This document shows, in pieces, positions 9,011 to 60,665 of a DNA stretch of 64,000 nt. The stretch is taken from contig CBDCPK010000002.1 in NCBI GenBank assembly GCA_965220195.1, positions 42,435 through 106,434 on the forward strand, given 5' to 3'. This DNA comes from an uncultured Candidatus Binatia bacterium (GTDB taxonomy: Bacteria; Desulfobacterota; Binatia; Bin18). The notes under the pieces were generated by a model. It had not been told where the DNA came from. It searched no databases and saw only the letters and a program-made list of their open reading frames with translations. The position numbers and the translations under genes are program-made. Positions within the stretch are counted from its first letter, which is position 1; every line of letters starts with the position of its first letter.

Positions 9011-9048
9011 GCATTGACACCCCTGTGGGGGCTATTTATAGGAAAGGC

Positions 9049-9336
9049 ATGGAGGCAGAACTTTTACCGTTAGCGCGGGAGGCTGTAGCCGCGTTGCAAT
9101 TGCAGGCCGCTGCCGCCAGTCAACCGAACTGGGCGGAGGTCGCGGGCCTGTTCGTGAGTACCGTGGTCGGTTTTGGGCAGATCGGCTTGATTGCGTGGGG
9201 CTTGCGGCGGATGGGCAAAGCCTCTGAGGAGCGCAATCGCCAGCTTGACCAGCAAGCGGAAACCTTGGGCAAGATCGGTCAGGCGCTAGAACGCCAGGGT
9301 GAGGTGTTGGCCGAACTGTTACGGCGCACGGCGTAG
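9049..9336 (+). CDS. small single-pass membrane coiled-coil protein, family member S3
   Basis: Start chosen by alignment with S5 (MEAELLPLAREAVAALQ vs MDTEFLQLARETAAALQ). TM helix GFGQIGLIAWGL, then ERNRQLD and the tail ALERQGEVLAELLRRTA. Confidence 0.65.
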   Translation: MEAELLPLAREAVAALQLQAAAASQPNWAEVAGLFVSTVVGFGQIGLIAWGLRRMGKASEERNRQLDQQAETLGKIGQALERQGEVLAELLRRTA

Positions 9337-23825: not shown

Positions 23826-23965
23826 GTGAGCGAACGGCCCCCCGGACATGCGTCCGCGCGGGGTCCGGAAGCCGAGAGGAGAACACGGTGGCTGAGAGCG
23901 CTCGGGAGAGGGCGGACTGCCCCGTTCGTCCTGGTCAGCAGTTTCAGAGTGAGATACTACCAAAA

Positions 23966-44660: not shown

Positions 44661-44872
44661 GCGGGTGAACAGGACTTGCCGGAGTGGAACGGGAACACCT
44701 GGGCAAGGACAAGAAGAATCCTGTCAGCGATGCACCTCTGCCGAGTCGGGCGGGTGACTCACTCCCGCCAAAACCTCCGTCCCGCCTCCGGTTTTGTCAG
44801 TCGTTCAAACAACCAGTGCGGGGGCCTTTCTCCTCTACGGGGGAACCGGGCGCGGGGCGGGGCGGAGCAATG

Positions 44873-44922
44873 TTTTTTGCCCTGAAGGGCCGGGCTCTGG
44901 TGAGCCCTTCAGGCTCAAAAAA
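44873..44922 (+). repeat. AT-stem hairpin H2, copy 6
   Basis: ttttttgccctgaaggg / loop ..ctGGTGAG / cccttcaggctcaaaaaa, located 25 nt upstream of the 44947 pseudogene. Confidence 0.7.
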
Positions 44923-44946
44923 CGATGTTGGAGGAGGGAGAGCCCC

Positions 44947-45114
44947 ATGAGACAGCAGGAAGAACCGAACATCCAGGGCGGGGACCGAATGCGGCAAATG
45001 GAGCTGTCCGCGCAGACCCGGGACGCTGAATAGCAACGCAAATGGCTGATGGAGAAGCGCAAGCCAGCAAAGGGCCGGCGCAAGCGCGGGCCGGAAAGCC
45101 TGAAACTCTTCTAA
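44947..45114 (+). pseudogene. paralog of the small basic protein at 59863, with an in-frame TAG
   Basis: MRQQEEPNIQGGDRMRQMELSAQTRDAE, stop, QRKWLMEKRKPAKGRRKRGPESLKLF. CAG in the 59863 copy is TAG here. It is followed by a remnant of the 60465 gene start (MPSTVIGVYAD), cut off by the kef 3' end. Confidence 0.6.
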
Positions 45115-45205
45115 GAGCACACCGCATGGATGGAGGCGGGAGAGCCATGCCCTCTACCGTCATCGGCGTGTACGCAGACCATAGTGAGCCACCTGTGCGC
45201 CCGGT

Positions 45206-46843
45206 TCAATCTGGATGGCGCTCGCCGCCCGTCTGGGGCGGGCCGCGTCGCGCCGTCCGCGCGGCCACATCGGCGGCAAATCCCGCCCCCGCCTCCGCCA
45301 AGACATTGAAGACGATGGAGGCCCCGGCCTGTTCCAGCGCCTCCCCCTCATCGGGAAACCGGACGGCCGCCGCGATCTGCCCGTCGAACGCGGCGGCCGT
45401 GATCTGGGCGAGCACGGCATGGGTGGCGGTGAGATGCGGCAGCGCCAGCAGCACGAGCGTGAGGGTGTGGGTGGTCTGCACGCGCTCCCAGAAGTCCGCC
45501 TCGCCGGGATCGCCCAGCACCACGTGGCGGCCGGCGGCCCGCTGGCGGTGCACCGTGTCCGGGTCGTGGTCTATGCCGATGACGGTCCCGCCGTGCAGCG
45601 GCTGCAGATGGTCGTAGGCGGCGGTGCCGAGGCGGCCCATGCCGATGATGGCGATGGTCGCGCCGCCGATATCGAGCGGTTGGTCGTCGGGGAGGCGGGC
45701 GGGGCGTTCCAGGCCCGTCCACGTCGGGCGGTGCCGGTCATAGAGGCGTTGGGCGGCGTCGTTCAGCACGGCGGCAAGGGTAAACGACAGTGCCAGCGCG
45801 ATGGCGAACACGATCAGCCAGTGGGCCTCAAGCCAGCCGCCCGCCACCCCGGCGGCCCCCACGATGAGCCCGAACTCGCTGTAGTTGGTCAGGTTGAGCG
45901 ACGCGAACAAGGCGGTTCGCGCCCGCAGCTTGAATCCGACGAACAGCCCGAAGAAGAGCGCCGCCTTCACCAGGACGAACGGGGTCAGGGCCACGCCGGC
46001 CAGCACCGCCTCCAGCGTGAGCGGGCCGGACAGCCCGATGGACAGGAAGAAGCCGAGCAGGAACAGGTCCTTGAACCCGAGCATCGTCTTGGCCAGCTCG
46101 TCCGCCTTCTCGTGGCTGGCGACGAGCACGCCGAGGATGAGCGCGCCCACGTCGCCCTTCAGCCCGACCAGCTCGAAGAGCTCTGCCCCACCCAGGGCGA
46201 GGAGCAGGGCATATAAGACCAGGAGTTCTCCGTGGCCCACCCACGCAAGGACGCGGGTCAGCAGCGGGCGCACCGGCAGGAGCAGCACCACCAGCAGCGC
46301 CCACGGGCTGGGCCACTGGCCCACTGAGGCCGCGAGAAAGAGGACCGCGACCACATCCTGCACGACGAGAATGCCGACCGCGATGCGCCCATGCAGCGCC
46401 GCGGTCTCCCCTTTCTCCTCCAGCACTTTCACGACGAAGACCGTGCTGGAAAAGCTCAAGGCGAAGGCGATCAACAGGGAGCGGGACAGGTCGAGACCAG
46501 AGAGCAAGGGGGTGCCCAGGAGCGCCAGCAGAGAGAGGGCGGGGCCGAAGAGCCCGACGACCAGCGCCATATGGAGGCCCGTGACGGCCCACACCTGCGG
46601 GCGGGCGAAGGTGCGCGGACTGAGCTTGAGGCCGACGGTGAACAGCAGCAGGGTGATGCCGAGGTCCGCCAGTTTTCGCAGCACGTCCCCACTGGTGACG
46701 CCCCAGAGGTTGAGCGCGAACCCGGCGGCGAGGAAGCCGACCAAGGGCGGCAGCCCGACGGTCCGGGCGACCAGGCCCAGGCCGAACGCCACGGCGATCC
46801 AGGTCACGTCTCCCAGGGCGATGGCGAGTAGCGTGAAGTCCAT
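45206..46843 (-). CDS. Kef-type cation:proton antiporter (CPA2) with C-terminal TrkA-N/RCK domain
   Basis: About 12 TM helices, then the Rossmann motif IAIIGMGRLGTAAYDHL. Confidence 0.9.
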   Translation of the reverse strand: MDFTLLAIALGDVTWIAVAFGLGLVARTVGLPPLVGFLAAGFALNLWGVTSGDVLRKLADLGITLLLFTVGLKLSPRTFARPQVWAVTGLHMALVVGLFGPALSLLALLGTPLLSGLDLSRSLLIAFALSFSSTVFVVKVLEEKGETAALHGRIAVGILVVQDVVAVLFLAASVGQWPSPWALLVVLLLPVRPLLTRVLAWVGHGELLVLYALLLALGGAELFELVGLKGDVGALILGVLVASHEKADELAKTMLGFKDLFLLGFFLSIGLSGPLTLEAVLAGVALTPFVLVKAALFFGLFVGFKLRARTALFASLNLTNYSEFGLIVGAAGVAGGWLEAHWLIVFAIALALSFTLAAVLNDAAQRLYDRHRPTWTGLERPARLPDDQPLDIGGATIAIIGMGRLGTAAYDHLQPLHGGTVIGIDHDPDTVHRQRAAGRHVVLGDPGEADFWERVQTTHTLTLVLLALPHLTATHAVLAQITAAAFDGQIAAAVRFPDEGEALEQAGASIVFNVLAEAGAGFAADVAARTARRGPPQTGGERHPD

Positions 46844-47758: not shown

Positions 47759-48751
47759 ATGGACACAGCGATAGCGAAAGCCGCCCCGGCCGGGGGGACA
47801 GTCCCGGCCCGGATTGCGGCCGGCGTGACGCCGGCGCTCTTTGCCGAGACGCGCCAGGGCGCACAGCGGTTTTGGGAGTTCTTTGGGGCCAATATCCGCA
47901 ATGCCAATACCCGGATGGCCTATGTCACGGCGGCCTACCGCTTCGCGGACTGGTGCGAGGGGCGGGCTCTCGCCTTGGGGCAGGTCGAGCCCCTGCATGT
48001 CGCCCGCTACATCGAGCAGCTCGGGCGGGCGTATGCGCCGGCCACGGTGAAGCAAAATCTGGCCGCCTTGCGCCAGCTCTTTGACTGGCTCGTCGTGGGC
48101 CAGGTCCTGCGCAGTAATCCGGCGGCCGCGGTGCGCGGGCCGAAACAGGTGGTGAAAACGGGGAAGACCCCCGTGTTGACGGCCGCCGAGACGCGCCGCT
48201 TGCTCGACAGTATCGACCCATCCACGTGCATAGGGTTGCGAGATCGCGCGCTGCTGAGCCTGATGGTGTACGGCTTTGCGCGGGTGAGCGCGGCGCTGGC
48301 GATGCGGGTGGCGGACTATTACACCCAGGGCAAGCGGTCCTACTTCCGGCTGCACGAGAAGGGCGGCAAGTATCTGGTCATTCCCGCGCATCATAGGGCG
48401 CAGGCCTGGACGGATGCATATATCGACCGGGCGGGGCTGGCGACCGACCCGAAAGGGCCGTTGTTTCCGTCGGCCGGCCGCCGGCGGGGGAGCGACCGCC
48501 TCACCAGGCGGGCGATGGACCGGACCGATGCGTTGAAGATGATTAAGCGGCGCGCGCAGCGGGCGGGCTTGCCGGCGGAGGTGTGCGCGCACAGCTTCCG
48601 GGGGACGGGCATTACCGAATATCTGCGGGCCGGGGGTACGCTGGAGACGGCGGCGCGGATTGCCGGGCATGAATCGACCCGCACGACGCAGCTCTACAAC
48701 CGCCTGCCGGACGAGGTCTCGCTGGATGAGATCGAGCGGATTCATATCTAG
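47759..48751 (+). CDS. tyrosine-type site-specific recombinase/integrase
   Basis: 330 aa. SAM-like N-domain, catalytic region with GLRDRALL, HSFRGTGIT and HESTRTTQLY. Full-length relative of the fragments at 17985 and 19548. Confidence 0.9.
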   Translation: MDTAIAKAAPAGGTVPARIAAGVTPALFAETRQGAQRFWEFFGANIRNANTRMAYVTAAYRFADWCEGRALALGQVEPLHVARYIEQLGRAYAPATVKQNLAALRQLFDWLVVGQVLRSNPAAAVRGPKQVVKTGKTPVLTAAETRRLLDSIDPSTCIGLRDRALLSLMVYGFARVSAALAMRVADYYTQGKRSYFRLHEKGGKYLVIPAHHRAQAWTDAYIDRAGLATDPKGPLFPSAGRRRGSDRLTRRAMDRTDALKMIKRRAQRAGLPAEVCAHSFRGTGITEYLRAGGTLETAARIAGHESTRTTQLYNRLPDEVSLDEIERIHI

Positions 48752-48944: not shown

Positions 48945-49199
48945 ATGGAAACTGAAATCATCGCTATGTGGGCGCAGGTCTTCGCAACGCTCGTCGTGGG
49001 CTTGGTGCAATGCGGCCTCATTGCCTGGGGCTTGCGGCGCATGGGCATAGCTTCGGCCGAGCGCAACCGGCAACTGGACGCGATGGAGGCCACCCAACGC
49101 GAGCAGAGCCGTACGCAGGCGGAAGCGTTGGGCAAAATTGGGCAGGCCCTTGACCGGCAGGGCGAAGTCTTAGCCGAGCTGCTTCGGCGTACCGCCTAG
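48945..49199 (+). CDS. small single-pass membrane coiled-coil protein, family member S6
   Basis: 84 aa. MWAQVFATLVVGLVQCGLIAWGLRRMG, then ERNRQLD and the tail ALDRQGEVLAELLRRTA. Confidence 0.7.
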   Translation: METEIIAMWAQVFATLVVGLVQCGLIAWGLRRMGIASAERNRQLDAMEATQREQSRTQAEALGKIGQALDRQGEVLAELLRRTA

Positions 49200-49798
49200 C
49201 CCCTATCCCCAGCCGGGCGGGGTCGAGCCCGGCACAACCGTTTCCTGATAGCCCCGCGCGTAACCGAGCGGGGCGTTTAGCAAGGTCGGCGGAGCCGATT
49301 CTTTTACCCTCCAAACCTCCCTTGAGGGAGCGTTCAAGGGAGTCACTCTTTACCGATCTCCCCGGATTGCCCTGGCTACGACGCCAGCGCCCCCGGCTCA
49401 GTGGGACGAACCCACAGAGCCACCCAAGCCAGGAGCAGCGCCGGGAACCCCCCCCAGGACATGCCGCGCGGGTGGGCGGCTGGTGCCCAGGTCCGGCGGC
49501 CATCACGCCTGCCCCCGCCACCCCCGGCTTCGTGTCCAAAGCGACACCAAGCCACCCCCACGGGATACGTCCGCCCCCGCCCCCACCCACCAATGGACGG
49601 CGCGTCTCTCTCCGCTGGCGTGAGGTTGGACCCGCCAACCGCGTCAGGCAGAGCCTGTTACGGCTGCGAAATCAGGCGTCCGCCCGGACGAAGACCACGC
49701 CTCCCTGGCAACCCGCGCCAGGCAGAGCCTGTCACGCGTTGCACTGTCGGTCGGCCCGCAGACCGCCGCCGGCGCACGCGCCGTTCGGATGATTCCGA

Positions 49799-49839
49799 TT
49801 TTTTCCCGACTCCAGAGATGGGTGAGAGTCGGGAAAAAA
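49799..49839 (+). repeat. AT-stem hairpin H2, copy 1 (upstream of ssb)
   Basis: ttttttcccgact / ccagagatGGGTGAG / agtcgggaaaaaa. Confidence 0.75.
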
Positions 49840-49952
49840 TCTTGTGTTTTTGCTAGGGAAAGGAGGTGCAAGACAGCAGAAGTATTATCGAATCCTGGTC
49901 TTTGGTTTTGTCTCATCAACGGGCGTAAGCCCCCCAACAGAGGAGGTACGAC

Positions 49953-50336
49953 ATGGCAGCGCTGAATAAAGCGATGATTCTCGGGAATGTGGGCAACGAG
50001 CCGGAGGTCCGCCAGACACAGAGCGGACGGGCGGTGGCCAACTTTTCGGTAGCAACGACGGACGCGTGGGGTGAGGGAGAAGACCGCCAGGAGCGGACCG
50101 AATGGCATCAGGTGGTGGTGTGGGGGAAGCTGGCCGAGACCTGCGGACAGTATCTCACCAAGGGCCGCCAGGTCATGGTGGAAGGCCGGCTCCAGACGCG
50201 GAGCTATGAGGATCGAGACGGCAACAAACGGTCCGTGACCGAGATTATTGCCCAGCAGGTGCAGTTTCTCGGGGGGCGGAAGGAGAACGGTGCGGACGCC
50301 GGCGCCGGTACCCCGGCTGCCGATCTGGACTCCTAG
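49953..50336 (+). CDS. ssb: single-stranded DNA-binding protein
   Basis: LNKAMILGNVGNEPEVRQTQSGRAVANFSVAT...TEWHQVVVWGKLAE is the canonical OB fold. The short tail ends AADLDS, not the usual acidic DDDIPF-type tip. Confidence 0.95.
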   Translation: MAALNKAMILGNVGNEPEVRQTQSGRAVANFSVATTDAWGEGEDRQERTEWHQVVVWGKLAETCGQYLTKGRQVMVEGRLQTRSYEDRDGNKRSVTEIIAQQVQFLGGRKENGADAGAGTPAADLDS

Positions 50337-50418
50337 GACCAATAGGCAGGGCGCTGGCCCTGCCACCCCAGGCAGCGGCCAGGCCCACGACCTGGCCGCA
50401 TCGTCAAAGGAGGACGGT

Positions 50419-50781
50419 ATGAGCAACGTTGATCTCAAAGCTTTGGAAACCAGATGCCTACGGCGGGTGCAGGAGCAGGCGGCGCAGATCGAGATGAAGA
50501 CTCTTGAGGAACGGTGCGGGGCGATCTATGCCATCGCGCGCGACTGCGTCCCCGAGGAGGACGCCGAGCTGGTCTGGATTTTCGCCAATAACCTCATCGA
50601 ACTGGACACGACCGATTATGACGCACGGGAGGCCATGGAGGAGGACGACGGGATTCACCTGTCCCGCGGCATCCGCTACGCGCTCACCATGTACCTGTTC
50701 CACATCGCGGATGGCTGGATGACAAGCAGCCGTAGCGATAAATCTACCCTGGGCAGCCAGGCCCGCGCTTGGTCGCCCTGA
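50419..50781 (+). CDS. hypothetical protein
   Basis: 120 aa with RBS aaaggagga, directly downstream of ssb. Confidence 0.5.
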   Translation: MSNVDLKALETRCLRRVQEQAAQIEMKTLEERCGAIYAIARDCVPEEDAELVWIFANNLIELDTTDYDAREAMEEDDGIHLSRGIRYALTMYLFHIADGWMTSSRSDKSTLGSQARAWSP

Positions 50782-51007
50782 GCGAGCGCCCCACCACCCC
50801 GCCAGTGGGGCGCGTTGCCAGGGTCGGTAGCTCTTACTACTGCATCCCGCCGGCCCCACCCTCCCAGACCGAGAAACCAGGCCAAAACCGCCGGTTTTGG
50901 CCTTCACCCGCAAAAACCGACCTCTATACGGGGCCGTAGCGGCCCGTAATCGGCGCGGTCCATACTAAGGCCCTCACCAAAGAATAGGCACTTGCAGGCC
51001 TGCCTGA

Positions 51008-51265
51008 TGTCGTTTTTGCGAAATCGGCCGCAACCTGAACCAACTCAGCCGGACTGCCAACCAAGGCGGGGTGGTCAACGGGGCCGACGTGCGGCGGGTG
51101 ATTAACGCGGGCCTCGTGCAGATGGAGGCCGTCAAAGGGCGGTATGACCAGGCGCTCGAAACGATAGTCAAGCGCGCCGTGGTGCCGTTATCCCAAGAGG
51201 CAGGACTGACCCGGCGCGGGCCGGCTGGCCCGCGTGAGATCCCCGCGCCGAAAAAATCAGCCTGA
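51008..51265 (+). pseudogene. mobC: MobC-like relaxosome accessory protein, N-terminally truncated
   Basis: EIGRNLNQLSRTANQGG is the hallmark MobC motif. The open frame begins just after a TGA, has no start codon, and lacks the N-terminal half. Confidence 0.6.
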
Positions 51266-51584
51266 ATCCGAGACCAGGATGCGGTACGCCTATCAGCAAG
51301 ACAGTCTCGCCGGCTTAGAGGACGCCCGGCAGACCCTCTACCATGCCGGGGTGAAGGCATACCGGGCGGCGGAGCGGGAGGAAGGGGCGGAACGGGAGCG
51401 CTGAGGGACGGCGGCCAGAAGCTGACAGGGACCACCCGCTGTCAGTACGCCATCGGGCCGCAGGCGGGCAGGAAGATACCCTTCCGTGGTTCTTATCCCT
51501 CTGAGTTTCCTGGGTTGCAATTGAGAAGCTCTCGTAGGGGGATTGCTTATCGCTTCCTTTGACGTTACCTGATGCTTGACATCT

Positions 51585-51602
51585 TGTCTCAAATTTGAGA
51601 CA
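51585..51602. promoter_or_regulatory. perfect 18-bp palindrome TGTCTCAAATTTGAGACA next to TTGACA (51576-81), 10 nt upstream of the toxin ATG
   Basis: Read directly from the sequence. Likely the TA operator. Confidence 0.5.
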
Positions 51603-51611
51603 GTTCCAGCC

Positions 51612-51953
51612 ATGAAAGACGTGCGGTTCGTGGGCTCCTCTCTCGACGACCTGCGCGCCTTTCCAAAAGCCCCCAAACAGGACCTGGGCCGTCAGATCGA
51701 GCGGGTCCAGCGCGGACTCGACCCGCTGGACTGGAAGCCGATGACGCAGGTGGGCCGCGGGGTCCGTGAGATTCGGATTCGCGACAAGGACAACAATTAC
51801 CGTGGCATCTATGTGACAAACATCGGCGAGGCCGTCTACGTGCTGCATGTGTTTAGGAAACAATCGCAGAAGACGCCGGCGCGGGATATCGAGAAGGCGA
51901 AGTCCCGGCTGAAGGCGCTTCGAGCACAGTTACGCAAAGGAGAGCGTCCATGA
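51612..51953 (+). CDS. RelE/HigB-like toxin (phage Gp49-like family)
   Basis: VRFVGSSLDDLRAFP...REIRIRDKDNNYRGIYVTNIGEAVYVLHVFRKQSQKTPARDIEKA. Overlaps the downstream HTH gene by 4 nt. Confidence 0.8.
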   Translation: MKDVRFVGSSLDDLRAFPKAPKQDLGRQIERVQRGLDPLDWKPMTQVGRGVREIRIRDKDNNYRGIYVTNIGEAVYVLHVFRKQSQKTPARDIEKAKSRLKALRAQLRKGERP

Positions 51954-52309
51954 AGATTCGCAGCTACCGGAGCGTCTGGGATGCTATCGCGGACAGTCCT
52001 GAAGAGGCGGCTCACCTCAAGCTCCGCGCTCAGCTCATGGATGCCATCAAGGCATACCTCGATGACGAGGGCATTACGCAGGCGGAAGCGGCCCAAAGAC
52101 TTGGCATCCCCCGTTCTCGCGTGAGCGAGCTGGTCAACGACCGGATCAGTAAATTCACCATCGACAAGCTGGTGGATATGGCGGCACGGGTCGGGCTGCA
52201 CACGGAGATAACCGTCAGGGGAGAGCAGCATCGTTCCGTATCGGCGGCCAGGGCGGTCTGGCCTGAGCCCGTCGGCGATACGGATGATCCATCCCTTCTT
52301 GACCGTTAG
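51950..52309 (+). CDS. XRE-family HTH antitoxin (HigA-like)
   Basis: ITQAEAAQRLGIPRSRVSELVNDRISKFTIDKLVDMAARVG is the typical HTH_XRE. Confidence 0.85.
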   Translation: MKIRSYRSVWDAIADSPEEAAHLKLRAQLMDAIKAYLDDEGITQAEAAQRLGIPRSRVSELVNDRISKFTIDKLVDMAARVGLHTEITVRGEQHRSVSAARAVWPEPVGDTDDPSLLDR

Positions 52310-52408
52310 GCCCAGCGGGCGGCGGACGGTATTCGCGGGGACGATAGCGCAGCCGAGGAATAGAACTACGCCCTGCGTGAGCGGGGCAACCGAACAGGAG
52401 CAACGGCG

Positions 52409-52777
52409 ATGCTGTACGAGTTCCCAGGCTACCATCACTGCGACTCGAAATGTGACGTGGAAATCGTCCGCGGCACAGGGCTGACGACACTGGTCATCTG
52501 TACCGAGTTGGAGAACAACCCCGGCACCAGCGTGACAAATGCGGCCGAGATTATTGCGACGCGTCTCTGCCAGGAAGACCCGACCATCGACCCCGAGGGG
52601 CTGATATGGGTCGAGCACTACCCGGAGCGTTCGGCTGGCCGTGGGCAAAAGTCCTACCCCGAGACATGGGACATGGTCGTGTTCACCCACCGAGCCGGTC
52701 GGACCTTCCGTCGTCCGGCGTGGCGACGTGTCTCGGCCGAGGAAGTGCAGACCATCCGCCAGAAGATTACGAGTTGA
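52409..52777 (+). CDS. hypothetical protein
   Basis: 122-aa ORF of ordinary composition. No domain recognised. Confidence 0.5.
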   Translation: MLYEFPGYHHCDSKCDVEIVRGTGLTTLVICTELENNPGTSVTNAAEIIATRLCQEDPTIDPEGLIWVEHYPERSAGRGQKSYPETWDMVVFTHRAGRTFRRPAWRRVSAEEVQTIRQKITS

Positions 52778-52848
52778 CCCTCACAGCCCAGGAGCAGGCA
52801 AACCGACACAGAGACCGTACGGATTAGGAAAGGCAGGAAATCGTGGCT

Positions 52849-53025
52849 GAGCACAATATCGATCCGCTCGGCCTCACAGACCCAGCCGGAAATCACGCCG
52901 ACCCCACTCTGAAACGAACCCGGCGCCAGGTTCCCCAACGTGGCTTGGCCCCAGACGGGTGAGGCTGAGAAGGCCGACAGGACAAACAGGGCAGCCGCCA
53001 TGAACTTGGCGCTATGGCGGGGCAT
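52849..53025 (-). pseudogene. 5' remnant of a secreted GVISGWVCEA-domain protein
   Basis: Signal peptide MPRHSAKFMAAALFVLSAFSASPVWG plus LAPGSFQSGVGVISGWVCEAERIDIVL. Homology then stops abruptly. Confidence 0.6.
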
Positions 53026-53205
53026 TCTTCGAGCCCAGCCAGGGAGGGCCGCATGAATGGCTGTAAGGCGGGCGAATCCCAAGGGCAGGGATACCGCCCG
53101 CACCATGCCACGCCGCCGGCCCCCAGGCGGTGGTGGCCAGGGGCTTCCATGCTGTTTCGATGCCCATCCCCCCTCGTTCAAGGGTGTCCAGAGTGTCCTC
53201 CCGGC

Positions 53206-53310
53206 TTAGGGCAGGAAGAGCAGGACAAGGACCAGGGTGACGACCACAATGAGGAACGCGATGGCAATCGCGTCGGCCCCTTGGGGATATTCCTTGGGTG
53301 CGTCCTTCAT
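53206..53310 (-). CDS. possible 34-aa hydrophobic peptide
   Basis: MKDAPKEYPQGADAIAIAFLIVVVTLVLVLLFLP with GGAGGAC 7 nt upstream. Below the ORF-track cutoff, so only weak support. Confidence 0.3.
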   Translation of the reverse strand: MKDAPKEYPQGADAIAIAFLIVVVTLVLVLLFLP

Positions 53311-53655
53311 GCTGCGTAGTCCTCCGGGGACAGCGGCGCCCCCGACCCCCTCCGGCCTGCCTCCCTCCGTCTGCTTACTCCATAATGGCCCGCCTGTCCA
53401 CCTTCATTTGACTAGGGGGGAGGACATATCTCCGTGCCCTCCCAGCGGACGCGGGTCGGGCGGGTGCCGGACCATGCTCACATAGCCGCCCGCCCGGCAA
53501 AGCGCGCCAGAACCGCTCCGCGAACCTGGCACGTTTGCTGAGGGCCTCGGCTCCAGAAGGCCCCGCCTGCCGGCCGCATCTCGCGCCAGGAAACCTGTCA
53601 CGGATGCTAAGGCCGTTGGCGGACTCAGCAGTGCGCCCTCCGGGCTTCTCTCTGA

Positions 53656-53694
53656 TTTTTTTCGGTCCGAGCGGTTGGTGAGAACCGAAAAAAA
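53656..53694 (+). repeat. AT-stem hairpin H2, copy 2 (upstream of ardC)
   Basis: tttttttcggt / ccgagcggttGGTGAGa / accgaaaaaaa. Confidence 0.75.
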
Positions 53695-53730
53695 TCATCC
53701 TTTGTTTTTAAGGGGAGAAGGAGGCGAAAA

Positions 53731-54627
53731 ATGAGCCAGGACGTGTACGCGAAAATCACCGCCCGTATCGTATCAGCCCTCAGAGAAGGGGTAGTGCCGT
53801 GGCATCAACCGTGGAACGCCGCCCAGGGCCGTCCACGTAATCTTATCAGCGGCAAGCCGTATCGGGGCATCAATATCTGGCTGCTGTCGGGACAAGGAGG
53901 CTCCCCATTTTGGTTGACCTACCGGCAAGCCGTGCAGATCGGCGGGCACGTCAAAAAAGGGGCGAAAGGCCAGACCGTCATTTTCTGGAAATTCCTGGCC
54001 CGGAAGGGCGGTGAGCAGGACGGCCGAGAGGACGGCGAGCAGGACCACAAAAAGCAGGCCGGCTACGCCATGGCGCGCGCGTATACCGTGTTCAATGCCA
54101 CGCAGTGTGTATTGCCGGAGGCATGGGCGGAGAAAGCCCAGGTGGGAGGGCCTGAGATAGCCCCGGCTCAAACAATCGCCGCGTGCGAACAGATTGTGGC
54201 GGAGATGCCGGGGCGACCGCACATCACGCACGGCGGGAATGCTGCCTTTTACCAGCAGGGGATTGACCAGGTGACGATGCCGGAGCCGGGCAGCTTCGAG
54301 GCCCCGGAGCTGTACTATTCGATCCTTTTTCACGAGCTGACCCACTCGACCGGCCATGCGGGGCGGTTGAATCGGGCGACGCTGGTGGACGCGCTCCGCT
54401 TCGGGGATACCAACTACAGCAAAGAGGAGTTGGTAGCCGAGATGGGGGCGGCGTTTCTGTGTGGGGTAGCGGGCATTGAAAACCGCACGGCAGACACCAG
54501 CGCCGGCTACATCCACGGGTGGCTGAAGAAGTTGAGCAATGACACGCGGCTGCTTGTGCAGGCCGCTGCCCAGGCCCAGCGGGCCGCGGATTATATTCTC
54601 GGTCTGGAGAGTCAGGCCGGGGAATAG
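53731..54627 (+). CDS. ardC: ArdC-like antirestriction protein (N-terminal ssDNA-binding domain plus zincin metalloprotease domain)
   Basis: ITARIVSALREGVVPWHQPW...GKPYRGINIWLL (DUF1738-type) and the HEXXH motif LFHELTHSTGH. Confidence 0.9.
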   Translation: MSQDVYAKITARIVSALREGVVPWHQPWNAAQGRPRNLISGKPYRGINIWLLSGQGGSPFWLTYRQAVQIGGHVKKGAKGQTVIFWKFLARKGGEQDGREDGEQDHKKQAGYAMARAYTVFNATQCVLPEAWAEKAQVGGPEIAPAQTIAACEQIVAEMPGRPHITHGGNAAFYQQGIDQVTMPEPGSFEAPELYYSILFHELTHSTGHAGRLNRATLVDALRFGDTNYSKEELVAEMGAAFLCGVAGIENRTADTSAGYIHGWLKKLSNDTRLLVQAAAQAQRAADYILGLESQAGE

Positions 54628-54720
54628 CCGCCTGTAGGCGGGCGGCGCAGCCGGGTCCGAAGAAACCGCCCCGCACCACCACCCCATGAACCGGGCGCAG
54701 CAGCCCAGAAGGAGCATCCT

Positions 54721-54969
54721 ATGAGCGTCTTAGCCATTGCCCCCGAGACCCTGAAACGCATGGCGGCAGCCATTCCTGTGGCAACCTACACGTGCCAGGC
54801 GTGCGCCCTCGCCGAAGACACCGACCTGTGCTTGGACCCCAGAGGGGAAGTGTGGGTGTGTGAAGGGTGCTATAGCGAAGCGGCCGAGCTGCACGGCTAC
54901 CAGGGCGCGCCGATCTCTATCAGCGACCTGCCCCGGCTCCTCGCTGAGCAGCCGGCCCCCGTCCGCTAA
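54721..54969 (+). CDS. hypothetical zinc-ribbon protein
   Basis: 82 aa with CQAC...CEGC. RBS agaaggagc. Confidence 0.5.
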   Translation: MSVLAIAPETLKRMAAAIPVATYTCQACALAEDTDLCLDPRGEVWVCEGCYSEAAELHGYQGAPISISDLPRLLAEQPAPVR

Positions 54970-55662
54970 GCCCGTCCCGCCCGGCTGGGGATTCCGCTCA
55001 GGCGAGATCCCCAGCCGGGTCCCACCCTTCAATCCGAGCGGCCCCCCCAGCGCGCGCCGTGGCCCTGGTTGCCGGGCGTAGCGCCCGCTGTTTTTGTCCC
55101 GCCCCCCCTGGGCGCGCGCTTCACCCCCCCGAGAGACACCCGGACTCACGCTGCTTGACCACCCTTCCGGCCCCCGTGCGCCGTGGACGAACCACCGCGC
55201 CCCCCCAGGACCCAAGGCGTCGGGCTGTTTGCGCACGGCGGAGCCGGGAACCCTCGGCCGGGGCGCTCGTCCCGGCGCGGGGACCCTGAGCGCGTCGGGA
55301 ACCCTCGTGCGCCCCGGCTCGTCCCGTTCCGCCATCAGCAGTGGCCCGACCACTCTTTACCAGGAGACCCCCCAGAACCTGCCGCGGGGGCGCGTGTCGG
55401 CCTGCCCAGGTCCGCAGGCCGTCATCACGCCCACGCAGCCCCCGGCTTCGTGTCCAAAGCGCCACCAAGCCACCCCCACGGGACAGGTCCGCCCCCGGCC
55501 CCACCCATCAATGGGCGGCGCGTCTCTCTCCGCTGGCGTGAGGTTGGACCCGCAAACCGCGCCAGAACGCGGCCCAGGGCGGCCACAACCTGTCACGGTT
55601 TCCGGTTTTCCACGCGCCTCCGTGATCGAAGGAAAGGGGGCCTCTCGGCAGGCTTTTGCCTC

Positions 55663-55706
55663 TTTTTTTTCAAACGGGAACGGGGGGTGAGCCGTTTGAA
55701 AAAAAA
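55663..55706 (+). repeat. AT-stem hairpin H2, copy 3
   Basis: ttttttttcaaacgg / gaacgGGGGGTGAG / ccgtttgaaaaaaaa. Confidence 0.75.
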
Positions 55707-55785
55707 GTGTTCTTGCGACTGGAATTGACCAGGCCATCCCGTAGCCGCCCCCGCGGTGAATAGCCGAAGCGAGAGGAGTGCCACT

Positions 55786-56118
55786 ATGCAGGTCAAACTG
55801 ACCACTGAGGGACCGGGCGAAATCTCGGTGTATGCCCCAGACATCGCGCAGACCGTCCGGTGTGTCATCCAGCGCGTTGATGCCCGCCACTGGCGGCTGT
55901 CCGCCCAGGACTGGAAAGCGCGGGCCTGGCACCATCAAGCCCTGATCGACATTTTCCCTGCCCAGGGGATGGCCCTCGTCCATGCCGGCGCCTTCTTGGA
56001 TCACCTCCGCCTGGCGACCCAAACCCAGCCCGTGCCCCCGGCCTGTTCCGTGTGTGGCTGGCGCGGCCCGCAGACCGCCGCCGGCACGTGCTACCAGTGC
56101 GCGGACCCGGATGCGTAG
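55786..56118 (+). CDS. hypothetical protein with C-terminal CxxC...CxxC
   Basis: 110 aa from the ATG after gagaggag. Ends CSVCGW...CYQCADPDA. Confidence 0.5.
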   Translation: MQVKLTTEGPGEISVYAPDIAQTVRCVIQRVDARHWRLSAQDWKARAWHHQALIDIFPAQGMALVHAGAFLDHLRLATQTQPVPPACSVCGWRGPQTAAGTCYQCADPDA

Positions 56119-56335
56119 CGCTGGGACGCCGCCCGCCCCGCCTGAGTAAAGGCGGGCCGCCCGGCCCCCGCTGGGTCCCACTTTGCTGGCGTGTCATCGA
56201 GTATCTCCGACACAGATTCCTGAGACGGGTAAATAGAACAGCTTGACGCGGTTTCCGCCCCCAGCCTGACCCGTCTGTCCGGTGTGTCAGCAAACGCACG
56301 TTTTCCAAGACCGGGCCAGCCACCTTGCCCGCGAG

Positions 56336-57004
56336 TCATTCATGGAAGAGGGCCGCGCCGGTGTCCTCGAAGTCTCGCTCAAGCACACCACAGGCTGCGC
56401 GACCACCTCCTGCACATCCCGCTTCCTCGCCGTCAGGGCAATAGGAGTCTGGATTCGTATGAATGATGAGTGCGGCCCCGTCTTCATCGAATATGGACAG
56501 TGGCCCGGCCGATAGCGAGATACGGGTCGTGAGCGTTATCAACGTGCCGCCGCCAAGCGGCTCGCCGTCTCGGTTGAAATCGAATCCCGATATATCGTCG
56601 ATATTGATATTGGGTAATTCTCCTGCGTGGTATGGGTGATTGCCATCCGGAGTCGTATTGCCATGACCCCCTGGATCGAAGTGGCCGCCGGCGGCACTAC
56701 ACGGTTCGCAGGCTCCGGTTTCGTGAATGTGCACGCCATGTTTGCCCTCTGTTAAACCGCGCCGCACTTGGATCACCACGACAACAATCTTGACCAGTTC
56801 ATCTGACGGGCGCTCCCGCAGGATCGCCTGTCCAATCCGCTTCAGTGAACCACACGTCCGCAAAGTAGCTTTCGCGGTTTGCTCGTCGATCACGGGAGTT
56901 TCCTCTTCCTCATCGACTTGAGCACTCGCCTGAAAACCCAAAAGACACACGAGCGTCATTGCCAAGATGCCACTCGCTCGCCGTATAGATTGAAGATATT
57001 CCAT
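56336..57004 (-). CDS. sodC: periplasmic Cu/Zn superoxide dismutase family protein
   Basis: Signal peptide, then GKHGVHIHETGAC, GGHFDP, HAGELPNI and ALIIHTNPD. Lower GC, on the opposite strand to its neighbours. Confidence 0.8.
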   Translation of the reverse strand: MEYLQSIRRASGILAMTLVCLLGFQASAQVDEEEETPVIDEQTAKATLRTCGSLKRIGQAILRERPSDELVKIVVVVIQVRRGLTEGKHGVHIHETGACEPCSAAGGHFDPGGHGNTTPDGNHPYHAGELPNINIDDISGFDFNRDGEPLGGGTLITLTTRISLSAGPLSIFDEDGAALIIHTNPDSYCPDGEEAGCAGGGRAACGVLERDFEDTGAALFHE

Positions 57005-57579
57005 GATTCTCCCCACGCCCGTTCCTAGATAAGTATCATCGCGGCGAACTATACCGGGCGGAGTGGAAGTGCACCAGCATCGAGAAGAAGACCCGAGCCG
57101 TCGCCCGGCGCTGGCCCATGGCTCAGGCGCTGCTCCAACCCGGTCGCCAATCGAACGTCATGGACATCTTCCTGCTCGCTCTTCAGCGCGCCTCTTGCCC
57201 GCTCTATGACACCAGCCTGTCTTGCCAGGAGTGTCCCTACTTCAGGCTGCCACACGGCGGGCGGCCGCGCCCACCGTTACAAAAATCGGCGTCCGGCACG
57301 GGAGCCGGACCGGCGACCAGGCCCGGCTCCCGCCGTCCCAACTCGCCGGTAGGCAAGGCTTAGCCAGGCCGCCCACTGCACGCGAGGCCGTCCCGGCAAA
57401 GCCGGAAGGCGGCCACCTGCGCACCCGCGCCAGGCACAGCCTGGCACGGCGGCGAACCCAGGCGTCCGCTCAGACGAAGACACAGCCTCCCTGGCAACCC
57501 GCGCCAGGCAGAGCCTGTCACGCGTTGCGCTGTCAGTCGGCTGCCATATGCGAGAGGCGCTTGCGCGCCATCCTCTCGA

Positions 57580-57618
57580 TTTTTCCCGGTCCGAGTGGGG
57601 GGTGAGAACCGGGAAAAA
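57580..57618 (+). repeat. AT-stem hairpin H2, copy 4 (upstream of HNH)
   Basis: tttttcccggt / ccgagtGGGGGGTGAGa / accgggaaaaa. Confidence 0.75.
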
Positions 57619-57655
57619 TCTTCTTTCTTTTTTCTGCTGAGAGGAGCGCGGGGCG

Positions 57656-58057
57656 ATGGCAAAACGGACACAGGGAATGAATTGGATCAGACGCGAAAAG
57701 CGGCTTGCCATCTACCTGCGGGACGGTCTGGCCTGTGTGTATTGCGGGGAGAGTGTCGAGACAGCCGCTCCGCTGACCCTGGACCATCTGCGACCCTACA
57801 GCAAGGGCGGGACGAACACGGCGACGAACTTGGTCACCGCGTGCCACCGGTGCAACAGCAGCCGGGGCAGTCGGACGGTCCGGGGCTTCTGCCGGGCAGT
57901 TTCAGCCTATCTGAATCATCACATTGGGGCGCAGGAGATCGAGCGGCATGTGCGGCGGTGCGCGTCCCGGAGGATTGATGTCCAGGCCGCGCGGACGCTG
58001 ATTGCGCGCCGGGGGAGTTGGGCGCAATGCCTCAAAAAGCAGGAGGGGCTGACGTGA
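57656..58057 (+). CDS. HNH endonuclease
   Basis: CVYCG...LTLDHLRPYSKGGTNTATNLVTACHRCNSSRG. Confidence 0.9.
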   Translation: MAKRTQGMNWIRREKRLAIYLRDGLACVYCGESVETAAPLTLDHLRPYSKGGTNTATNLVTACHRCNSSRGSRTVRGFCRAVSAYLNHHIGAQEIERHVRRCASRRIDVQAARTLIARRGSWAQCLKKQEGLT

Positions 58058-58194
58058 AGCAACTCAGCTTTTTTGACACGACCAGGGACGAGCTGGCCGA
58101 GATTCGCCGCTACGCCGAGCTGGAACAGCGGCTCGGCTTCACCCTGAGCATGAGCAGGAAGACCCTGCCGGAGATTACCGGCGTGGCGGTCTAG
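58054..58194 (+). CDS. possible 46-aa coupled ORF
   Basis: The GTG overlaps the HNH stop (GTGA). AGGAGGGG lies 5 nt upstream. Below the track cutoff. Confidence 0.35.
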   Translation: MKQLSFFDTTRDELAEIRRYAELEQRLGFTLSMSRKTLPEITGVAV

Positions 58195-58215
58195 CCACAG
58201 GGAGGAAGAGGCAAC

Positions 58216-58437
58216 ATGACGTGTGCAGATTGTGGAGCGCCGACCGAGATCATCAGCCGCCGCATTGGCTTCTTTGGCAAGGTGGATACTTACAGCCGCT
58301 ATTGTCGGCCCTGCCTCCCCTCTCACGCCAGCGAGGGCGGCTATACGCCCGAGGAGGCGCTGGCCATCTATGACGCATGTGTTGACGCGGTGAAGCGTGC
58401 CCAGGCCGCCCGTGCGCAGAAAGGGAAAGCCTCATAG
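58216..58437 (+). CDS. hypothetical zinc-ribbon protein
   Basis: 73 aa with CADCG...CRPC. RBS ggaggaagagg. Confidence 0.5.
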   Translation: MTCADCGAPTEIISRRIGFFGKVDTYSRYCRPCLPSHASEGGYTPEEALAIYDACVDAVKRAQAARAQKGKAS

Positions 58438-58633
58438 CCCGGCAACGGAAGCAAGACGGGCCGCGCTCCGCGTTGCGACTGCGAGGGAGTTTGATATGGA
58501 CCTGAGCAATGGGCATCTGAAAGCGATAGCCCCACGGGTGTGCGAGATATTGCGGGAGGAGGAGGGGGACTAGGCTCTCCCGCTGGTTGAGCGGCGGTCT
58601 GGTGGTGATGACGGAGCCACCAGACCGCCGGCA

Positions 58634-58762
58634 TTAGGACCCTTTGGCAGGAGCGTTGCCACGCCCGCCGCCCGACGGATTGCCCGTGGTTGAGGGCCAG
58701 TTCCCGCCCTTACTACTCCCCTTACCGCCCCCGCCGCCTTTGCCTCCACCTGATTTTCCCAT
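58634..58762 (-). CDS. possible 42-aa glycine/lysine-rich peptide
   Basis: MGKSGGGKGGGGGKGSSKGGNWPSTTGNPSGGGRGNAPAKGS, preceded by agaggagaaaaaacg. KGG-repeat-like. Weak support. Confidence 0.35.
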   Translation of the reverse strand: MGKSGGGKGGGGGKGSSKGGNWPSTTGNPSGGGRGNAPAKGS

Positions 58763-59760
58763 CGTTTTTTCTCCTCTCTTGGGAAATTTTGAGAGGAGGC
58801 ATACCCGGAAACGCCGGGTGCTGTCAACGGGACGCTGACCGTCACCATCAGGAGCCGTGTCGGGTCCCGCTTTCCGGCTCTTTGACGAGGGCCGCAAGCG
58901 GATTTTTCGCCGGTCATGGAAAATCCCCGGAACGGCCGTTTCCGCGTCACCCCGCCCGCAAGACAGCAGACCCCCCCCCGTGCCCCGCCGTGACCCTCAA
59001 GGCGGGCTTCCGCTTCTTTCTCATGCTCCCCCCGCCCCGGCGGGGCGCTCCCCCTCGTTCCGCCTGGACGCACCAGGCCGAACGACCCCCCAGGAGGAAC
59101 AAGGCGGGTCGGGCTGTTTTCCGCCTCACGCCCGGCCCTCGTCCCAGCCGGGCAGGAGCCCGCGCCCGGCTGGGAACCCTCGTGGGCCTAAGCGCTCGGC
59201 AGAAGCGGCCCTCCATGAACTCTTCACCTTCAAACCCCCATCCCCAATCTTTGGGGCGCAACCCCCTCACTCCCCCACGCTTTGGGGGAGGTTCGGCCCC
59301 CCTTCCTACTTGTCCTTCCCCCCTGGCGCGGGGGGAAGGACTGAACCGCAGCGCCCCCCAGGACGTGCCGCGGGGGTGGGGTGTCGGCCTGCCCAGGTCC
59401 GCAGGCCGTCACCCCGCCCCCGCCGCCCCCGGCTTCGTGTCCCAGGCGACACCAAGCCACCCCCACCATTCTGGCCAAGCCCCCCAAGACATGCCGCGCG
59501 GGCCAGCACGCTGGTGCCCAGGTCCGCGGCCATCACGCCCGCCCGCGCCGCCCGCCGCTCCGTGTACAGGGCCACACCGAGCCACCCCGAGCAGGAGGCC
59601 CCCGGAAGCCGGACCCGTCTCACCGCAGGGTAAACCGACTCAACCCACCGGCTTCCCCGGCAAAGCGCGCCAGAACCGCGCCGCGAACCTGGCACGTTTG
59701 CACAATGAGCGAGGCGTCAGGGGAAAGATACTGCCCGCCTTCGGCGAGGCGGTTTCTCGC

Positions 59761-59806
59761 TTTTTCTTTTCCAGGAGACAGGGGGGTGAGTCCTGAAAAA
59801 GAAAAA
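59761..59806 (+). repeat. AT-stem hairpin H2, copy 5
   Basis: tttttcttttccagga / gacaGGGGGGTGAG / tcctgaaaaagaaaaa. Confidence 0.75.
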
Positions 59807-59862
59807 ATGTCGGGTTTTATAGGGAAGGTGCAACGCAATCACGCAGAAGGAGGGAGAGCCCA

Positions 59863-60030
59863 ATGAGACCGCAGCCAGACACGAACATCCAGGGTGGGGA
59901 CCGAATGCGGCAAATGGAGCTGTCAGCGCAGACCCAGGACGCTGAACAGCAACGCAAATGGCTGCTGGAGAAGCGCAAGCCGGCCAAGGTGCGGCGGAAG
60001 CGCGAGCCGGAAAGCCTGAAACTCTTCTAG
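59863..60030 (+). CDS. small basic hypothetical protein (55 aa)
   Basis: RBS ggagggagag. Coding is supported by a protein-level-conserved pseudogene paralog at 44947. Confidence 0.5.
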   Translation: MRPQPDTNIQGGDRMRQMELSAQTQDAEQQRKWLLEKRKPAKVRRKREPESLKLF

Positions 60031-60062
60031 GCACACACCGCACAGAGGGAGGAGGGAGAGAT

Positions 60063-60389
60063 ATGGATAAGACAAATATTCGGGCGAAGATTGAAGCCCT
60101 AGAAGAGCTGGAAGCGCTGGACATGGAGCGGATCATCAGCCGCGCAGGGGAAGAGGTCGCAGAGTTGGCCGGCCTCGACCGCGAGTATGCCGGGGACAGA
60201 GCGCTGGCCGTCAATCAGATCCGGGTGCTCCTGGAGGCCGCCTACGACGAGGGGCGCTTGCATGAGGTCGCCAACGCGGAGGCCGACCGGAAAACCCTCA
60301 TCATGACCCGCCTGGAGGAGCTGGGCACCATGGACCAGACCCCCGCGGTCTGCGCCGAAGAAGCAGCCCTTGTGGCCGAACTGCGCTAG
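60063..60389 (+). CDS. hypothetical acidic coiled-coil protein
   Basis: 108 aa. RBS gagggaggaggg. Confidence 0.5.
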   Translation: MDKTNIRAKIEALEELEALDMERIISRAGEEVAELAGLDREYAGDRALAVNQIRVLLEAAYDEGRLHEVANAEADRKTLIMTRLEELGTMDQTPAVCAEEAALVAELR

Positions 60390-60464
60390 TGCCGACATCG
60401 AGCCCCGCGCGCCGGGGTTCGGGTGTGGGCATTGGCCCACCACCACACAGGAGGAGGGAGAGAC

Positions 60465-60665
60465 ATGACCTATACCGTCATCGGCGTGTACGAAGACAAT
60501 TTACAGGGGGGGTGTTTCCATGTGGAGGCGAATAACTCCTCGGAGGCCGTGGCGGCGGTGGAGCGCCGCGACACACCAGAGACCGCCCACATCGCCTCTG
60601 ACTTCATCGTCCTGGTGACCCTGCCTGGTGCGCAGTTCAACGAGTACAGCGCGCCCGATGAATGA
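60465..60665 (+). CDS. hypothetical protein (66 aa)
   Basis: RBS gaggagggagag. The N-terminus MTYTVIGVYED is echoed by the remnant MPSTVIGVYAD at 45147. Confidence 0.5.
   Translation: MTYTVIGVYEDNLQGGCFHVEANNSSEAVAAVERRDTPETAHIASDFIVLVTLPGAQFNEYSAPDE

Follow-up and report, generated by a model that had tools for sequence, protein, structure and literature searches.

Early gene expression from the incoming single strand enables plasmids to defeat restriction, CRISPR and the SOS response before they become double-stranded and, to our knowledge, such expression has so far been shown only for the enterobacterial F and IncI plasmids. The present analysis concerns a 64-kb stretch of contig CBDCPK010000002.1 from an uncultured Candidatus Binatia bacterium (hereafter the window), in which the segment at 44.8-59.9 kb holds an array of structured non-coding modules that precede conjugative establishment genes. 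The modules probably represent a new element that corresponds to the F plasmid's single-strand promoters without being related to them in sequence.

Orientation-specific, structured non-coding signals of single-stranded DNA (ssDNA) with stem and loop motifs include the sso of rolling-circle plasmids and the ssi of the G4/phiX type, which are read by the host RNA polymerase or primosome and start the synthesis of the complementary strand. A replicon has one or two of them, at sites independent of gene starts, whereas the modules described here occur once per gene or operon. The Frpo/ssi single-strand promoters are located upstream of ssb and anti-defence genes and use the transferred strand as the template; three unrelated classes are documented, and 5' RACE has confirmed new classes that lack sequence homology (PMC11541004, PMC12672017). 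In F, ColIb-P9 and pESBL (classes 1-3) they are, like the modules of the window, repeated leading-region non-coding elements of a few hundred nucleotides (PMC11541004, PMC12672017), and the anti-defence genes are described as lying on the transferred strand (Samuel et al., PMC11541004). The EGeRS1 elements of the pLS20 family of Bacillus plasmids are 600-750 bp long and relatively GC-rich, occur as about five repeats with many inverted repeats upstream of ardC and other establishment operons, carry no recognisable housekeeping promoter and vary among copies by internal duplications and deletions (PMC8708921). The spacers of the window, being long, GC-enriched, repeated, rich in inverted repeats, promoterless and placed before establishment genes, fit this account, and EGeRS1 closely resembles what the original prediction, made from the letters of the window, had described; the likeness is one of description, and the host phylum differs. 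Repeated elements before leading-region genes, including ardC, with transient expression after transfer are also known as the CUP/ArdK system of the IncN plasmid pKM101 and the Reg576 operators of p576 (PMC6294495, PMC6289460).

Six co-oriented non-coding modules were identified between 44.8 and 59.9 kb, each in front of a + strand gene (ssb, ardC, an HNH endonuclease gene or a small gene), and together they form a conserved, strand-specific hairpin array before conjugative establishment genes. Read in the orientation of the gene, a full module consists of an optional unit of ~110 nt, one or two copies of a hairpin termed H1, a short GC hairpin, a second hairpin termed H2 and a T-rich tract, followed by the ribosome-binding site and ATG. 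H1 is present in five of the six modules (one or two copies each) and the ~110-nt unit in three. With covariance models for H2 (R1) and H1 (R2), all six H2 and all eight H1 copies were found in the orientation of the gene and directly before a start codon. Past the end of the H2 model, a GGAG-type ribosome-binding site and the start codon follow at 9-120 nt. All eight H1 copies reported previously were recovered by R2 in + orientation, and the proposal that a conserved hairpin H1 stands upstream of H2 is borne out by the covariance models and by covariation; the implied number of five H2 copies has to be raised to six, with the extra copy at 44864-44944. The spacers (0.4-1.4 kb) are C-rich on the + strand and have a GC content of 64-70%, against 61.6% for the window, so that they are indeed enriched in GC as had been claimed, but only moderately. 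Likewise, the spacers listed previously do hold the repeat blocks, but the list omits 53320-53730, which contains two of the listed H1 copies. Features added here are a longer H1 with a covarying outer stem, the pairing on the - strand, the sixth module at 44.86 kb and the nature of the served genes as conjugative establishment genes.

The hairpins are assigned below to the - strand, which is the strand favoured by pairing, while the model matches and the modules themselves are read in + orientation. The module of ssb (49953-50336, +; Pfam SSB, E 3e-40) comprises H1a at 49631-49673 (45.2 bits), H1b at 49705-49748 (54.7 bits; outer stem GCAAC/GTTGC, core CGCGCCAGG/CCTGTCACG, from alignment A1) and H2 with its T-rich tract at 49789-49866 (67.1 bits). 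In front of the anti-restriction gene ardC (53731-54627, +; Pfam ArdcN, E 2e-32, and MPTase-PolyVal, E 9e-35) lie H1a at 53494-53544 (46.7 bits), H1b at 53573-53613 (51.1 bits; outer stem GCATC/GATGC) and H2 with its T-rich tract at 53646-53722 (90.4 bits), which ends 9 nt before the ardC ATG. A gene for 110 amino acids (aa) without a Pfam match (55786-56118, +), an open reading frame (ORF) with a ribosome-binding site, is served by a single H1 with a long inner stem-loop at 55549-55608 (37.1 bits) and an H2 at 55654-55729 (49.2 bits; stem CAAACGG/CCGTTTG). The HNH endonuclease gene (57656-58057, +; Pfam HNH, E 6e-13) follows H1a at 57417-57459 (40.0 bits), H1b at 57491-57534 (55.6 bits) and H2 at 57570-57646 (78.5 bits). 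The rightmost module, with H1 at 59657-59707 (45.9 bits) and H2 at 59754-59830 (56.1 bits), serves a small 55-aa gene (MRPQPDTNIQGG...; 59863-60030, +), a homologue of which also stands after a module in the related locus L025. The leftmost module is decayed and retains H2 at 44864-44944 (stem CCTGAAGGGC/GCCCTTCAGG, loop end GGTGAG; R1 26.7 bits, E 8e-4).

The leftmost unit (44932-45182) duplicates part of the rightmost one (59848-60500) in decayed form. An in-frame TAG (GAATAG versus GAACAG) is present in the small gene that follows H2, the middle gene (~385 bp) is deleted and the third gene is truncated by the - strand gene of a KefB-like antiporter (45206-46843).

The outer stem of H1 (4-8 bp) varies in sequence while its pairing is kept (GCATC/GATGC, GCAAA/TTTGC, GCAAC/GTTGC, GTGCCCC/GGGGCAC); it encloses a core conserved in sequence, CGCGCCAGG/CCTGKCACG, in which two non-Watson-Crick positions are fixed and of which CGCGCCAG/CTGKCACG carries the fixed mismatches, and the apex is a variable inner stem-loop of 3 to >24 nt. 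The exact pattern GCGCCAG-N3-30-CTGTCAC occurs four times, against 0.01 occurrences expected by chance. In H2, a T-run leads into the 5' arm of a GC stem; a loop of 13-17 nt, ending in the invariant GGTGAG, is followed by the complementary arm and an A-run. Both sides have changed in 20 cells of the H1 outer stem and in 10 of the 16 pairs of H2, and the observed score was reached in 0/500 shuffles for either hairpin, statistics that overstate independence since the module copies are mutually related.

Conservation of the H1 core in one or two copies per module raises the possibility that the genes have ordinary duplex promoters and that H1 is the operator of an element-encoded repressor, with expression rising in a repressor-free cell as in CUP/ArdK or Reg576. 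Establishment regulons under the control of a repressor, with elements repeated upstream of the genes, have been described (PMC6294495, PMC6289460), and proteins with a helix-turn-helix (HTH) domain are encoded in the segment. However, those systems have duplex promoters, fixed operators and a cognate repressor gene, whereas the halves of H1 stand 3 to >24 nt apart around a self-complementary insert, which is a misfit with an operator of fixed geometry, and the outer stem covaries while its sequence varies. Furthermore, the H1 core is common to elements of two unrelated phyla without an obvious shared regulator gene, the pairing is specific to one single strand (see below), and no sigma-70-like promoter was detected at any module: a consensus scan of 16 kb gave two sites against 2.3 expected, neither of them near a module. 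A duplex operator is thus regarded as improbable. The lack of a double-strand promoter is counted here in favour of a single-strand signal.

Other signals in H1 were tried and rejected: a sigma-54 promoter (TGGCAC..TTGC) has a spacer of 2-3 nt and not 5, a -35-like GTGACA on the - strand has no -10 at the right distance and points in the wrong direction, and no convincing match was obtained for a DnaA box, a LexA box or the MOBP/MOBQ nic motifs.

The two strands of the hairpins are not equivalent. In H1, compared from alignment A1 (the reverse-strand alignment A4 set the outer stem in two registers), the non-Watson-Crick pairs read on the + strand are 52 C·A versus 6 G·T, and standard pairs make up 71.7% on the + strand against 82.2% on the - strand. 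The fixed C·A alternates with T:A and the neighbouring G:C with A·C; the equivalents on the - strand are G·T/A:T and C:G/T·G, so that these alternations retain the pair on the - strand and lose it on the + strand. The same tendency is seen in H2 (19 C·A versus 6 G·T on the + strand; standard pairs 83.5% on the + and 88.6% on the - strand). For whole modules, the - strand was the more stable in 15 of 16, with a mean difference (- minus +) of -6.8 kcal/mol compared with -2.0 in dinucleotide shuffles (Wilcoxon p = 0.001) and +3.3 kcal/mol in coding windows of the same genome. The DNA fold of the ardC module (53480-53730) has -67.9 kcal/mol (z -5.2) on the - strand and -63.4 (z -4.4) on the + strand, and the - strand folds of the modules reach z values of -5.2 and -5.5. 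Therefore, from the excess of C·A over G·T on the + strand, the selected fold is that of the - strand, which is the template strand of the served genes. A selected structure antisense to the genes argues against a structure of the mRNA leader, and such an asymmetry of mismatches would be meaningless in a duplex operator.

The modules could alternatively act as RNA in the + strand leader, insulating or attenuating by a GC hairpin and T-run, or masking the ribosome-binding site until a factor opens it, as reported for EGeRS1. A hairpin within 4 nt of a T-run is found in 11 of the 23 modules, several of which are called terminator-like on the + strand; by eye, several copies have, just upstream of H2, a sequence (CTTCTC, GCTGCTCTCC) able to pair with the ribosome-binding site (GAGAAG, GGAGAGCAG); and EGeRS1-B stops read-through in its native orientation only (PMC8708921). 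On the other hand, 12 of the 23 modules have no terminator-like arrangement, the blocking of read-through by EGeRS1 (PMC8708921) thus having a parallel in the other 11 only, and C·A far exceeds G·U on the + strand while the - strand is the more stable, so that the opposite strand is favoured. H2 itself was rejected as an intrinsic terminator, since on both strands the GC stem is preceded by the T-run and followed by the A-run. A leader role for the modules is therefore considered unlikely; it is in any case compatible with a single-strand start site, since an insulator and such a site could coexist.

The - strand preference might instead reflect antisense RNAs transcribed from that strand, which would cover the ribosome-binding site of every establishment gene served and control the 5' ends of these genes. 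However, no promoter-like site was found for the - strand downstream of a module, just two spacers have terminator-like sites on that strand, and six cis-antisense genes would be less economical than a strand that becomes single-stranded anyway in the course of transfer. We thus hold this explanation to be highly improbable.

The ~110-nt unit (family D1) was confirmed as a repeat in four copies (49468-49561, 55386-55479, 59373-59466 and 59498-59591), 65-89% identical to the reference copy. It comprises two hairpins, Ha with the apical loop CCAGGTCC and Hb (GGCTT.GTGTC...GACAC.AAGCC). In copy a (49452-49561) Ha is decayed and the fold is no better than in shuffles (z about 0); copy b (55369-55479) has a well-formed Ha with the apical loop and z -2.6; and in the tandem pair c and d (59347-59600), c is well folded (z -4.1) and d decayed (z +1.6). 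No clear selection on this unit is apparent. The extension described as shared by copies a and b is also real, 49511-49647 matching 55429-55565 at 92% (block D3); two further blocks are D4 (49636-49755 and 57422-57541, 88%) and D8 (53493-53538 and 59656-59701, 98%). C-runs in the extension blocks (49571-49592 and 55490-55510) give G-quadruplex-type runs (GGGTGGGTGGGGGCGGGGGCGG) on the - strand, and similar runs occur in Betaproteobacteria modules (L150, 20340-20365).

The earlier conclusion that this conservation is not protein-coding stands, as GC varies less from one codon phase to another in the spacers (spread 0.12) than in the genes beside them (0.30), and no codon periodicity was seen in the spacers. 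Two exceptions were noted, namely a possible 42-aa Gly-rich ORF (MGKSGGGKGGGGGKGSSKGGNW...) on the - strand of the longest spacer (58634-58762), with a good ribosome-binding site and a codon periodicity of 0.26, and an apparent mobC remnant at 51071-51265, considered below.

Within the 64-kb window, no further copies of R1 or R2 were detected outside 44.8-59.9 kb. In ~1.7 Mb of fetched loci, matches occur only beside ssb, ardC, HNH or small genes of Binatia-type elements (L001-L004, L006, L025, L027 and L078), each oriented as the downstream gene, and the more distant ArdC loci of other phyla (L007-L024, L026, L028, L029) gave no match to either model. Genes served in the window and the related loci together are ssb (three loci), ardC (at least 10), HNH (two) and small genes without assigned function. 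Rfam gave no match at gathering thresholds over the window and only noise at E up to 10 over 44-61 kb, and none of its curated covariance models for motifs thought to act as single-stranded DNA (such as STAXI) matched. Comparison of the Binatia module with 72,556 plasmids (PLSDB, a general collection whose F/IncI content is unconfirmed) by megablast and blastn, which had been suggested as a check, also gave no match. The hairpin array is thus absent from Rfam and from the plasmid literature within reach of the search.

This distribution bears on the possibility that the blocks are selfish or recombinogenic repeats (REP/BIME, MITE-like or integron attC-like cassette sites) with no role in expression. 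Gene order between modules varies among loci in a cassette-like manner, the blocks are mosaic, and a tyrosine recombinase gene is present on the + strand at 47759-48751. A generic repeat family of the REP/MITE kind had been named beforehand as the finding that would overturn the proposal; however, no copy was found outside the establishment segment, either in the window or in the flanks of the related loci, and the modules are always found in one orientation and at a constant position immediately upstream of a ribosome-binding site. In addition, no GTTRRRY/RYYYAAC attC cores were seen in H1 or H2 by reading, without a pattern search, the recombinase is co-oriented with the genes and not divergent as in integrons, and plasmids of Ralstonia and Janthinobacterium carry a single module before a run of co-oriented genes in the stretch fetched. 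Mobile repeats are the least probable of the alternatives weighed here.

Among the related loci, the 42-kb contig L002 carries the same small membrane protein gene as the one that precedes the ssb module (48945-49199, +) and four modules serving ssb, ardC and genes without assigned function; these are followed by a MobC-like gene, a MobA/VirD2-type relaxase gene on the same strand and a VirD4-type coupling protein. The closest relatives of the ArdC of the window are likewise from Candidatus Binatia metagenome-assembled genomes. In the window, the 64-aa ORF at 51071-51265 (...DVRRVINAGLVQMEAVKGRYDQ...) resembles the C-terminal part of the MobC-like relaxosome protein of L002 (16378-16842) and looks like a mobC remnant, so that the segment is probably a conjugative element that has decayed or been rearranged and no longer has its relaxase. 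Many chromosomal ardC genes behind Binatia modules are cut to 49-153 aa (L003, 1785-2246 and 10001-10336; L025, 10001-10294; L027, 10001-10150). Together with the mobC remnant, these truncated copies give the loci the look of decaying integrated elements, in which the modules appear to outlast the genes they served.

A scan of metagenomes with an H1-N-H1 pattern gave, among the matches listed, mostly chance matches in GC-rich DNA and a single locus with true Binatia-type modules (L078); it also exposed a distant version of the module (L047, L050, L142), which was traced by blastn to plasmids of Betaproteobacteria. The distant version retains the H1 core GCGCCAG...CTGTCAC, sometimes nested, and carries an H2-like tip (a loop ending in YGAG before a GGGGG stem) on an imperfect hairpin of ~55 bp; these modules are highly structured. 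They sit in gene sets resembling leading regions, with antirestriction, ArdC, SSB and DUF932 genes. On the Ralstonia pickettii plasmid pRP6297_1 the module is followed by genes for DUF932, a ParB-N protein and DUF4942 and then a coupling protein; on a Janthinobacterium plasmid by an antirestriction gene, ParB and SSB and then the type IV coupling protein and a MobF relaxase, all on one strand; on a Nitrosospira plasmid by ArdC and a thermonuclease, beside umuDC; and on a Diaphorobacter plasmid, where it lies downstream of an N-6 DNA methylase gene, by a string of small genes. The Ralstonia plasmid and that of Janthinobacterium (sp. J1-1) belong to cultured strains. In these relatives the establishment genes point towards the presumed origin of transfer (oriT), with the relaxase operon beyond it on the same strand. 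The F plasmid has the same layout.

In the distant version, one H1 may lie inside the loop of another (L150, 20005-20130, of Ralstonia pRP6297_1; L152; L154), with the sequence CCGCGCCAGG[GCCAGAC-CCGCGCCAG..CTGTCACG-TGTCTGGC]..CCTGTCACGG. A metagenome contig of 3129 nt (L148) ends, from ~2826 onward, in a perfect long palindrome centred on an H2-like hairpin, probably an assembly artefact caused by the hairpin. A pseudoknot pairing the GTGAG of the H2 loop with a bulged CTCAC in the Ralstonia hairpin was considered and rejected, the bulge not being conserved in the other Betaproteobacteria copies.

Taken together, the repeats, the covarying hairpins, the strand bias, the position before establishment genes and the recurrence in conjugative contexts describe an array that is most likely a new variant of leading-region single-strand promoters or of establishment regulatory sequences. 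More specifically, we give about an even chance to the reading that the module is a leading-region single-strand DNA element similar to Frpo/ssi and resembling EGeRS1 of pLS20, that the long spacers are copies of one such structured cis-element, and that a conjugative element has inserted into the Candidatus Binatia chromosome, its leading (establishment) region persisting in decayed form at 44.8-59.9 kb. We infer that the module would fold as transferred DNA and may have promoter or priming activity. The hairpins would form on the - strand, the template of the served genes and, judging from the relatives, presumably the strand transferred in conjugation, which would enter the recipient as single-stranded DNA. 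The folded module may then recruit a host enzyme, either RNA polymerase or the primosome, and RNA synthesis towards the adjacent gene would begin before a complementary strand exists; SSB, ArdC and the other products would thus be made early and only transiently. Once double-stranded, the module, having no recognisable promoter, would be silent, and about half of the copies may, in addition, block transcription that reads through from upstream; such an insulating role in the established double-stranded state is possible and compatible with a single-strand DNA element.

The modules share with Frpo/ssi the location directly upstream of, and co-oriented with, ssb and anti-restriction genes and the strong single-stranded fold of the template strand. 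The gene order in L002 and the Janthinobacterium plasmid would fit a placement on the oriT-proximal side with the transferred strand as template; the window itself has neither relaxase nor oriT. They differ in that no sequence similarity to the Binatia module was found in the PLSDB searches, subject to the plasmid content noted above, and in that Frpo/ssi form one large stem-loop, whereas the modules are arrays of short hairpins, the ~55-bp hairpin of the Betaproteobacteria version excepted. The stem of Frpo/ssi rebuilds -35/-10 boxes, whereas the conserved parts here are the mismatch-bearing stem core of H1 and the loop motif GGTGAG. The hosts are also different, namely an uncultured phylum and Betaproteobacteria.

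Several observations weigh against a single-strand DNA element. No -35/-10 pair is rebuilt in the stems of any module; the H2 base shows, by eye, only a weak AANNAT-like hexamer on a stem of merely 13-16 bp, and the Ralstonia hairpin, by eye, TTGACG-N19-TCTCAC. The module is therefore filed as working like an ssDNA promoter or priming signal and not as a member of the Frpo family. No relaxase, oriT or type IV secretion system was found in the 64-kb window, so that the identity of the transferred strand is extrapolated from the gene arrangement of the relatives, and the presumed oriT region of L002 yielded no nic motif, only a weak AGCGCCCG. EGeRS1 of pLS20 lies upstream of ardC as well, yet the transferred strand there is the non-template strand and a single-strand promoter has been ruled out (PMC8708921), whereas the fold here favours the template strand; similar-looking elements thus need not be single-strand promoters. 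Moreover, the strand bias is weaker in the distant modules (the - strand is favoured beyond composition in three of five), the ~110-nt unit is structurally decayed in two of its four copies (a and d) with no strand bias beyond composition, and the relatedness of the copies tempers the shuffle statistics, as noted above.

On the transferred (-) strand, the H1 core would present a fixed G·T wobble, joined in most copies by an A·G mismatch. The presence of the same core in elements of Candidatus Binatia and of Betaproteobacteria suggests that it would probably be read by a universal host factor and not by an element-encoded protein. It is tentatively proposed, as a possibility we still find doubtful, that H1 and H2 represent a new class of cis-element on the transferred strand, spanning phyla, which is read by such a factor and starts RNA synthesis on incoming ssDNA without sigma-70 boxes. 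Recognition would in that case differ from that of Frpo, for example through a primosome or primase entry site or structure-specific binding of RNA polymerase.

If an element of an uncultured soil phylum and of Betaproteobacteria plasmids, conserved in structure but unrelated in sequence, does serve early expression from the incoming strand, the strategy would be widespread, and the module would offer a concrete case of host machinery recognising a folded strand without sigma-70 boxes. The EGeRS1 elements of pLS20 may also become easier to understand in its light, and the two covariance models could help find leading regions and new anti-defence genes in metagenomes.

The first 44 kb of the window, which has a GC content of 56-68% across 2-kb windows, contain ordinary chromosomal genes such as those for a TonB-dependent receptor, MacB/HlyD/OEP efflux proteins and a large leucine-rich repeat (LRR) protein (23753-28150; 1465 aa, many repeats, Pfam LRR_1/LRR_8). 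From ~44.3 to 60.7 kb the gene content turns to that of mobile elements and includes, besides the genes named above, an SNase-like fragment, a toxin-antitoxin pair with a Gp49-like toxin (weak match) and an HI1420-type antidote, a second pair of the Gp49-like/HTH type (Pfam HTH_37/HTH_3) and several further small genes without assigned function, all on the + strand. The sole - strand gene within the module array is a Cu/Zn superoxide dismutase-like gene (56336-57016) with a signal-peptide-like N-terminus, located between two modules. A paralogue of the small membrane protein, with the C-terminus ...LGKIGQALERQGEVLAELLRRTA, is encoded at 9025-9336, 40 kb from the ssb module and with no module beside it; next to it lies a 131-aa ORF (8678-9073) that we take, without a domain search, to be a transposase fragment.

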